From a virus, in IMG/VR virus record IMGVR_UViG_3300045988_033265, positions 1-42,797 of that record: a stretch of DNA of 42,797 bases, one strand, 5' to 3'. The notes beneath the pieces were generated by a model. That model saw only the letters and a list, made by a program, of their open reading frames with translations. It had not been told where the DNA came from and searched no databases. Positions 17,651 to 18,118 of the stretch are shown piece by piece. Numbering within the stretch: position 1 is the first letter of the stretch; each line of letters begins with the position of its first letter. Both the position numbers and the translations under genes were made by a program.

Positions 17651-18118
17651 ATGAAAAAGTACATCGGAACGAAACTCATCGAGGCGGCACCGGCTATCCG
17701 CAAGGGCGGCAAAGTTTACGAGAAGACCCAGCCCATTCCGAGAAGTATGGAGCATGAGGAAGACGGCTACAAAGTCCGCTACTCTGACGGATACGAATCT
17801 TTCAGCCCGAAGCAGGTTTTTGAAGAGGCGTATCGACCGACTGACGGGCTGAGCTTTGGACTTGCTATCGAGGCAGTGAAGAAGGGCATGAAGATCGCAC
17901 GCCGCGGCTGGAACGGTAAGAACCAGTACGTCGAGCTTGCGGAGCGTATCAGCTACGAGAACGCTGCGCACGAGTTAATTAACGCCAAGCACGAGGCCAT
18001 CGGAAACAAAGCGCTTGCCTTTGTCGGCACATCCGGCGTACAGCTCGGCTGGCTGGCCTCGCAGGCCGACATGCTGGCTGATGACTGGGTGATCGTCGGG
18101 GAAGCGGTGACCGAATGA
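17651..18118 (+). CDS. DUF2829-domain protein (Tad2-like candidate Thoeris anti-defence sponge) with an N-terminal extension
   Basis: FGLAIEAVKKGMKIARRGWNGKNQYVEL ... GWLASQADMLADDWVIV matches the DUF2829 pattern (from memory). Confidence 0.7.
   Translation: MKKYIGTKLIEAAPAIRKGGKVYEKTQPIPRSMEHEEDGYKVRYSDGYESFSPKQVFEEAYRPTDGLSFGLAIEAVKKGMKIARRGWNGKNQYVELAERISYENAAHELINAKHEAIGNKALAFVGTSGVQLGWLASQADMLADDWVIVGEAVTE

Follow-up and report, generated by a model that had tools for sequence, protein, structure and literature searches.

Known proteins of the Tad2 family are homotetramers with two inter-protomer pockets, and the signals bound by different members are diverse. They include 3' cyclic ADP-ribose (3'cADPR, or 1''-3' glycocyclic ADP-ribose, gcADPR) and 2'cADPR, histidine-ADP-ribose (His-ADPR) in the case of ModTad2, N7-cADPR in the case of Tad2_71, the cyclic dinucleotides cGG and cGAMP, which are bound by HgmTad2 and SptTad2, and cyclic UMP and CMP (cUMP and cCMP), which MoTad2 binds in a second pocket. 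The Tad2 protein of phage SPO1 (gp34.65; PDB 8SME/8SMF/8SMG, 8WJE) is 89 residues long. Here, we describe a Tad2-family protein encoded at positions 17651–18118 (+ strand) of a 42,797-nucleotide stretch of viral DNA (IMG/VR record IMGVR_UViG_3300045988_033265, positions 1 to 42,797), which is hereafter called the window. The protein is composed of a C-terminal Tad2 core preceded by a separate N-terminal domain (N-domain).

The initial annotation of the gene proposed a candidate Thoeris anti-defence sponge, and this reading is supported by the family profile, the fold, and the ligand-contacting residues. We consider it probable that the protein is a sponge for an immune signal, with 3'cADPR as the most likely ligand. 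The gene belongs to a temperate siphovirus-type prophage of gut Clostridia and would be expressed there as a distal member of the early/replication operon. If the protein behaves like its homologues SPO1 Tad2 and HgmTad2, the core, formed by residues 67–149, would assemble into a homotetramer, and W87/N88 and W134/S137/D140 would line its two inter-protomer pockets. The pockets would sequester an alarm molecule derived from ADP-ribose and made by TIR proteins, most likely the 3'cADPR of type I Thoeris. The effector ThsA would then never be activated, and the phage would escape the abortive defence.

The Tad2 core and its predicted ligand

The gene is a complete ATG-to-TGA open reading frame (ORF) of 155 codons, stop codon excluded, which is preceded by a Shine-Dalgarno-like AAAGGA (17637–17642, +) located 8 nucleotides 5' of the start codon. 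The ORF that had been annotated at exactly these coordinates is confirmed: it carries the sequences quoted in the annotation, and its matches to the Pfam family PF11195 and to solved Tad2/AcrIIA7 proteins are far beyond chance. Since the match to PHROG 872 spans residues 1–149 (E = 6.7e-46), the two-domain protein represents an established phage family. At least 7,956 homologues of the 155-residue protein were found, the closest of which are 95% identical and originate from metagenome-assembled genomes of human-gut Caudoviricetes. The full two-domain protein is present in 86 phage records.

The Tad2 core (residues 67–149; 17849–18097, +), as delimited by PF11195, the alignment to SPO1 Tad2, and Foldseek, is composed of helix α1 (69–77), the GWNG loop (86–89), a short insertion (approximately 98–119), and the GWLASQADMLADDW segment (133–146). 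The initial annotation recognized about 90 C-terminal residues as a member of the DUF2829 family and proposed to verify this by a profile hidden Markov model search and by the comparison of an AlphaFold model with published Tad2 structures. Both comparisons were performed, and the assignment holds in each of them, as well as in the conservation of ligand-contacting residues described below. Residues 68–149 match PF11195 (Tad2-like, formerly DUF2829) over positions 2–73 of the 73-position profile with E = 6.3e-20 and a score of 71.9 bits, against a gathering cut-off of 25. Seven distinct sequences of solved Tad2/AcrIIA7 proteins match the protein with E values from 4e-11 to 6e-10. The AlphaFold2 model of the complete protein has a mean predicted local distance difference test score (pLDDT) of 84.7, and its core has the Tad2 fold with an N-terminal helix, an antiparallel sheet, and a C-terminal short helix and strand. 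In a Foldseek search of the PDB, all 24 matches with E <= 1e-3 are Tad2 structures, namely SPO1 Tad2, ModTad2, HgmTad2/AcrIIA7, and SptTad2, with a probability of 1.0 and target-normalised template modelling (TM) scores of 0.54–0.77. The next match has E = 0.48.

The core aligns from end to end with SPO1 Tad2, the length of which is nearly equal. The two share, in addition to PF11195, the short insertion, the GWNG loop, and the W..SQ.D..A.DW segment, and the Foldseek probability is 1.0 with target-normalised TM scores of 0.64–0.76. However, SPO1 Tad2 lacks the N-domain and is only about 30% identical to the window protein. The codons of W87/N88 (17909–17914, +) correspond to W25/N26 of SPO1 Tad2 and W21/N22 of HgmTad2, which are located in the ligand-contacting loop, and the codons from W134 to D140 (W-L-A-S-Q-A-D; 18050–18070, +) correspond to SPO1 W73, S76, T78 (alanine here), and D79. 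The equivalences are derived from alignments, whereas the roles of the residues are taken from publications. All of the SPO1 residues W25, N26, W73, S76, and D79 are retained as W87, N88, W134, S137, and D140, and I63/T65 correspond to V125/T127. According to the alignment, the four residues that account for most of the contacts with the ligand are kept. The residues of the gcADPR pocket are likewise the same as those of HgmTad2/AcrIIA7 (PDB 8KBI-8KBM, 8WJC) and of pdAcrIIA7 (9KZR), members of the same family: W21, N22, G23, W87, L88, S90, and D93 of HgmTad2 are W87, N88, G89, W134, L135, S137, and D140 in the window protein.

HgmTad2/AcrIIA7 differs from the window protein in having a 41-residue insertion that forms a pocket for cGG/cGAMP with R31, S47, F70, and N85. 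The insertion after strand β2 of the window protein is about 22–24 residues long, similar to that of SPO1 Tad2, as opposed to 35–41 residues in HgmTad2 and SptTad2, and the positions of HgmTad2 R31 and N85 are occupied by A97 and L132. The protein thus lacks the features of the subgroup that binds cyclic dinucleotides. Because the insertion is short and the residues of the cyclic-dinucleotide pocket are absent, no pocket for the cGG/cGAMP signals of CBASS-type systems is predicted.

The closest experimentally characterized protein with the same architecture, an N-domain followed by a Tad2 core, is encoded by a prophage of E. coli AIEC_UM149 (IMG gene 2729517083, 159 residues). Its identity to the window protein across the two domains is 39% (E = 5e-34). 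Supplementary Table 12 of Yirmiya et al. lists it as "Experimentally verified: Yes", and it is among the four out of five homologues for which inhibition of type I Thoeris was observed in B. subtilis. Its activity shows that the N-domain is compatible with ordinary Tad2 function. Similar to the window protein, it lacks a threonine at the position of SPO1 T78, where it has a glycine. It differs in originating from a proteobacterial prophage, in a ten-residue insert in the N-domain (GGKPNTDRFD), and in the core segment WVPSIGDLM, which reads WLASQADML in the window protein.

Several observations weigh against 3'cADPR as the ligand. ModTad2 retains the tryptophan, asparagine, tryptophan, serine, and aspartate residues of the pocket, yet it fails against type I Thoeris and binds His-ADPR. 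Therefore, the conservation argues more firmly for an ADP-ribose-type TIR signal in the canonical pocket than for 3'cADPR specifically. Other Tad2 proteins bind N7-cADPR, cUMP, or cyclic dinucleotides, and 19 of 84 tested sponge homologues, about a quarter, inhibited none of seven systems. Within the pocket, the adenine hydrogen-bond donor T78 of SPO1 Tad2 (T92 of HgmTad2) is replaced by Ala139, and this alanine is uniform throughout the gut clade (GWLASQADML). The position is variable in the family, with threonine, serine, glycine, or alanine, and the verified E. coli homologue has the glycine mentioned above. Furthermore, the water-coordinating residues D67 and H71 of SPO1 Tad2 are not kept, as D67 corresponds to G129 and H71 is lost.

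The same observations on ModTad2, on the alanine of the gut clade, and on the inactive homologues, together with the plasticity of ligand specificity within the family, speak for a Tad2-fold sponge that binds another signal, such as His-ADPR of type II Thoeris, N7-cADPR of type IV Thoeris, cUMP or cCMP of Pycsar, or a novel molecule. We regard such a sponge as unlikely, because four of the five homologues that were tested first blocked type I Thoeris, including the only one among them with the N-domain and Tad2 architecture. In addition, SPO1 Tad2, which the window protein resembles in its short insertion, bound none of the other cyclic nucleotides tested, and the replacements at R31 and N85 argue against a cyclic dinucleotide. 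3'cADPR remains the preferred ligand.

Because AcrIIA7 (9kzr, 8kbi) is another member of the family and the annotation of some phage homologues reads "anti-CRISPR protein", a function against Cas9 was considered as well. In a 2026 study, a form of AcrIIA7 without the head was reported to inhibit SpyCas9 in vitro and to bind tracrRNA through a basic groove. A corresponding anti-CRISPR would hold tracrRNA in the basic groove of its tetramer and block the loading of Cas9, and the N-domain would be the counterpart of the head of pdAcrIIA7, which likewise extends a tetrameric core at its N-terminus. Of the five basic residues in the groove of pdAcrIIA7, three have counterparts in the window protein (K58, K66, and K71 correspond to K77, R85, and K90); however, these three are conserved throughout the family and do not discriminate between its functions. 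The other two, K93 and R101, are located in a long "extended domain" that the window protein lacks. The N-domain was rejected as an equivalent of the head, since the head is formed by two helices of 48 residues in total, whereas the N-domain is a β domain unrelated to it and without a sequence match to 9kzr. The window protein therefore lacks both the head and the extended domain of the tracrRNA-binding form. Moreover, full-length pdAcrIIA7 failed to inhibit Cas9 loaded with single guide RNA (sgRNA), and in the experiments of an independent group, neither HgmTad2 nor other homologues acted against Cas9. An anti-CRISPR function of the window protein is very improbable.

The window protein is an ordinary member of the Tad2 family, the N-domain and Tad2 architecture of which has already been catalogued and validated once. 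It adds a member, from a clade of gut Clostridia with alanine at the adenine-contacting position, to a family of thousands, and changes little in what is known about the family.

Cores from the same clade also exist on their own, as ORFs of 84–90 residues, or behind a second, degenerate Tad2-like repeat. The partner at the N-terminus is therefore interchangeable, and the occurrence of lone cores indicates that the core works without the N-domain. The tandem-Tad2 proteins, about 160–170 residues long, are encoded by Clostridia prophages (L058:5770-6255, L062:5761-6270, L073:5761-6255, L081:5746-6255, and also L032 and L036). In these proteins, the degenerate repeat, F..A..ALK.G.K..R..W.G.W...AD.W, replaces the β N-domain in front of the GWLASQADML core.

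The N-terminal domain

The N-domain (residues 1–62; 17651–17836, +) is a small β domain with one helix, as indicated by the AlphaFold2 model, alignments, and homology to the protein gp68 described below. The initial annotation noticed an extra N-terminal domain of about 65 residues, the existence of which is confirmed by its conservation in thousands of homologues and by modelling with a pLDDT of 85–92. Residues I5, G6, K8, A12, G39, Y44, D46, G47, Y48, S52, and P53 are invariant among phages of Firmicutes, Proteobacteria, and Bacteroidetes, and the domain is characterized by the motif YIGTK.I.A.P...GY.V.Y.DGY.S(W/F)SPK.VF..AY. When modelled alone (pLDDT 91.4, predicted TM score 0.73), the domain has four strands and a short helix, and residues 1–10 are unpaired and have a lower pLDDT. 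In the full-length model, residues 2–5 form an additional strand. The mean net charge of the domain is -1.1, which is slightly acidic, in contrast to the basic pockets of sponges.

No model in Pfam or NCBIfam matches the N-domain. A fold search of the PDB with the isolated domain gave a best E value of 0.8, for Tudor/SH3-like barrels with TM scores of up to 0.34, and the same search of BFVD returned just uncharacterised phage homologues and weak matches to "PGDYG protein". The only sequence matches among solved structures, to designed "Cake" β-propellers, were rejected, because they consist of an 18-residue match of about 1.8 bits that is summed over eight or nine repeats. The domain is also not Lockin, which is β-rich as well: Lockin was reported to be absent from INPHARED, whereas the N-domain is present in 72 INPHARED records, and in two listed fusion proteins the N-domain is followed by Lockin as a distinct domain.

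The only homologue of the N-domain found with both structural and functional data is part of RyR Tad, which is gp68 of Pectobacterium phage vB_PatP_CB1 and was described in a preprint from June 2026. According to the preprint, the C-terminal ryanodine-receptor-like domain of gp68 binds gcADPR alone and is sufficient, whereas the N-terminal part, gp68_N (residues 1–86), has no anti-Thoeris activity. In the crystal structure, the N-domain of gp68 is domain-swapped: strand β1 is inserted into the partner subunit, where it completes a five-stranded sheet and aids dimerisation. Residues 5–65 of gp68 (L087:17143-17694) match the N-domain profile with 32.7 bits (E = 2.8e-6 at Z = 1e6), whereas the maximum among approximately 2,000 composition-matched shuffles was 8.4 bits. 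In a BLASTP comparison, the N-domains of the window protein and gp68 are 32% identical (E = 9e-5), and they have in common the motif K.Y...KL..A.P...GY.V.Y...Y.SWSP..VF. Judged from their sequences, the two domains are homologous. In gp68, the domain precedes a sponge domain for gcADPR. However, the C-terminal domain of gp68 is all-helical, resembles the Repeat12 domain of ryanodine receptors, and is unrelated to Tad2, and gp68 is a dimer as opposed to the tetramers of Tad2.

The best reading of the N-domain is that of a recurrent accessory module for strand-swapped dimerisation, and not of a new ligand domain. By homology to gp68, it would pair with a second copy through the swapped first β-strand, and the additional dimer contact would serve to brace or cross-link the oligomer of the sponge. 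It is not expected to be required for the binding of the signal itself. Monomer models of the N-domain have four or five strands and a helix, and the unpaired residues 1–10 of the domain modelled alone are compatible with strand swapping. Homology to the strand-swapped domain of gp68 would also explain why the first strand is unpaired in the monomer model. Two points count against the accessory role. It is taken over from a homologue that is 32% identical and is fused to a dimeric, not a tetrameric, partner. Moreover, K8, D46, S50, S52, and several tyrosines are strongly conserved, which could reflect more than a structural role.

The initial annotation suggested that the N-domain could indicate a different ligand or a second function. 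A different ligand is not supported, since the architecture is common, one protein with it has been verified against type I Thoeris, and gp68_N is inactive alone. A second function of an accessory kind is possible; in the sense of a new ligand it is not supported, as the homologous domain of gp68 is inactive alone and serves dimerisation. The N-domain might nevertheless be a second ligand-binding domain, which would make the protein a double sponge similar to the fusions Acb4-Tad2, Sequestin-Tad2, and Sequestin-Acb4 described by Tal et al. 2025. These modular phage proteins join small oligomeric signal-binding domains, and the N-domain also precedes families found in them. Sponge-sponge fusions are common, and Sequestin itself was discovered through its fusion to known sponges. 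In addition, invariant residues with polar or aromatic side chains are numerous in the N-domain, which has five or six sponge families as fusion partners and is also encoded with little or nothing attached to it. However, both halves of the fusions of Tal et al. 2025 are proven sponges, whereas the gp68 homologue of the N-domain is inactive against Thoeris on its own, and the crystal structure places the ligand in the C-terminal domain. Unlike the domains of sponge-sponge fusions, the N-domain is nearly always positioned at the extreme N-terminus; it is slightly acidic on average, and some of its seemingly stand-alone copies are remnants of frameshifted genes. A double sponge is therefore improbable, and we continue to prefer an accessory dimerisation module.

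Association of the N-terminal domain with sponge families

The N-domain is not special to the window protein: besides the 86 phage records with the two-domain protein, its SWSPK motif occurs at least 102 times in the published table of Tad2 homologues, which also lists a 150-residue relative of the window protein from Ruminococcaceae. A search with the N-domain only, which covered 1.84 billion cluster representatives, yielded 1,073 matches at E <= 1e-3. The census of architectures comprises the 149 of these representatives that best match the N-domain of the window protein. In 140 of them, the domain begins no later than residue 12. It is followed by a tail of at least 30 residues in 115 of the 149, and 34 contain the N-domain only. 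Of the 115 tails, 81 include a known sponge domain, and 34 are unclassified. The sponge partners among the 81 are Tad2 (46), Acb4/PF13876 (26), and Sequestin/PF21825 (15), some of which are combined in one protein, and Pfam scans agree with these counts. PF13876 is the family of Acb4, a sponge for cGAMP, and PF21825 that of Sequestin, a sponge for 3'cADPR discovered through its fusion to Tad2 and Acb4 (Tal et al. 2025). One match to an Acb2/Tad1 hairpin was also found among the partners.

The published sponge tables independently contain these fusions: the N-domain motif occurs at least 52 times in Table S3 of Acb4 and 94–148 times in Table S1 of Sequestin, and Table S4 of Lockin contains two proteins with the N-domain in front of Lockin. 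The term "N-terminal" is absent from the main text of the Sequestin/Lockin paper. By these assignments, the N-domain fronts at least five unrelated sponge families: Tad2, Acb4, Sequestin, Lockin, and RyR Tad.

It is possible, and we propose it only tentatively, that the N-domain is a general companion module of sponges, without an entry in Pfam or NCBIfam, that fronts at least these five families. Should the association have a function, the module would be important during native infection in spite of being dispensable upon over-expression, and it might cross-link sponge oligomers, raise their avidity or stability, or shield a basic surface. A profile of the N-domain would improve the annotation of thousands of phage proteins, in which current pipelines give the domain no name. 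Compared with the publications examined, the breadth of the association between the N-domain and sponges is mildly new. It suggests the use of the domain as a bait for new sponge families, which is a lead and not a result. The bait would be a cheap guilt-by-association handle, following the same logic as the discovery of Sequestin, and the 34 of 115 proteins with tails that match no known sponge would be candidates for new families.

Among the proteins with unclassified tails, P0311, P0342, and P0378 share one tail type, and others are P0295, P0304, P0322, P0340, P0349, P0387, and P0392. Their C-terminal tails, 70–170 residues long, have no match in Pfam or among the seeds of known sponges. 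Because of guilt by association with the N-domain, all of these tails are candidates for new sponge domains. Occasional partners of the N-domain, with or without Acb4, are DUF4406 (P0306 and P0333) and a WDGH domain (P0374).

Other arrangements of the N-domain were also observed. The 298-residue metagenomic protein P0156 contains an N-domain, Acb4, a partial N-domain, and Tad2, an order that could have arisen by recombination between two adjacent N-domain genes. A sequence search with P0156 did not identify PDB 6E3C, the excluded partner domain mentioned by Hadary et al. In the prototypical crAssphage BK010471.1 (Carjivirus communis) and several crAss-like relatives, the N-domain forms the start of the gene annotated as N4_gp49/Sf6_gp66 (PF13876). 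Given the assignment of PF13876 to Acb4, the crAssphage protein KP06_gp41 would be an N-domain fused to an Acb4 sponge. Genes that encode the N-domain alone are only partly usable as proof of its independent function. One of them, P0129 (L086:1344-1700), called as a 60-residue stand-alone N-domain, is a frameshifted and internally deleted remnant of an N-domain and Tad2 gene. By contrast, P0147 is genuine, with an N-domain, a 45-residue helical tail, and no Tad2 nearby.

Genomic setting of the sponge gene

The window corresponds to a complete prophage of gut Clostridia, which is temperate and of the siphovirus type. The genes are arranged in the order integrase (1966–2994, -), DNA methyltransferase (6851–7678, +), RecE/RecT (8368–10169), replication initiator and DnaC-like loader (10586–12156), two further DNA methyltransferases (13391–14515 and 14512–15084, +; 13391–15084 overall), a Lar-like restriction-alleviation ORF with a weak match (16565–16741, +), the Tad2-like gene, a coiled-coil ORF, and a helix-turn-helix regulator (18794–19012). 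They are followed by a terminator-like hairpin with a 13-base-pair stem (19072–19103, +), which ends the + strand operon that holds the sponge gene. A phage-borne tRNA-Trp (CCA; 19286–19362, +) is located after the hairpin, just 5' of the gene for the small terminase. The genes 3' of the tRNA encode the small and large terminase, portal, capsid, tape measure, tail fibres, and endolysin. The presence of integrase, RecE/RecT, replication, terminase, portal, capsid, tape measure, and endolysin genes places this Tad2 gene in a phage or prophage. Its relatives in reference genomes belong to prophages of Flavonifractor, Dysosmobacter, Faecousia, Oscillibacter, Lachnospiraceae, and related Clostridia.

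The sponge gene is positioned near the distal end of the early/replication operon, directly before the packaging genes. The location of the homologous genes in Escherichia phage Kapi1 and in Vibrio phages is similar. In a promoter scan around the sponge gene, sites were no more frequent than in shuffled sequences. Two antisense ORFs that overlap the sponge gene, 17588–17971 (-) and 17979–18437 (-), are unsupported and were rejected as genes.

Three DNA methyltransferases and the weakly matching Lar-like ORF share the early region with the sponge gene. The early region is a stretch rich in counter-defence functions, with an anti-signalling gene beside anti-restriction genes, a combination that is of use in annotation as a mark of the counter-defence region of a prophage. 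A tryptophan-rich ORF of 100 residues (17322–17624, +), which has no match in Pfam, PHROGs, or NCBIfam, is located directly 5' of the sponge gene, with a gap of 26 nucleotides.

On its 3' side, the sponge gene overlaps with a coiled-coil ORF of 130 residues (18115–18507, +) in an ATGA stop/start sequence (18115–18118), and therefore the two are probably translationally coupled. The 130-residue ORF is linked to the sponge gene in this manner and may be part of the sponge, for which it is a candidate only. Its product and the C-terminal tail of P0276, in which the same N-domain stands in front of Acb4, have 48% identity (E = 4e-23) and a conserved C-terminal motif, HPW.NLWAW.KRKL. The likeness between the ORF product and the P0276 tail suggests a recurring module composed of a sponge and a tail.

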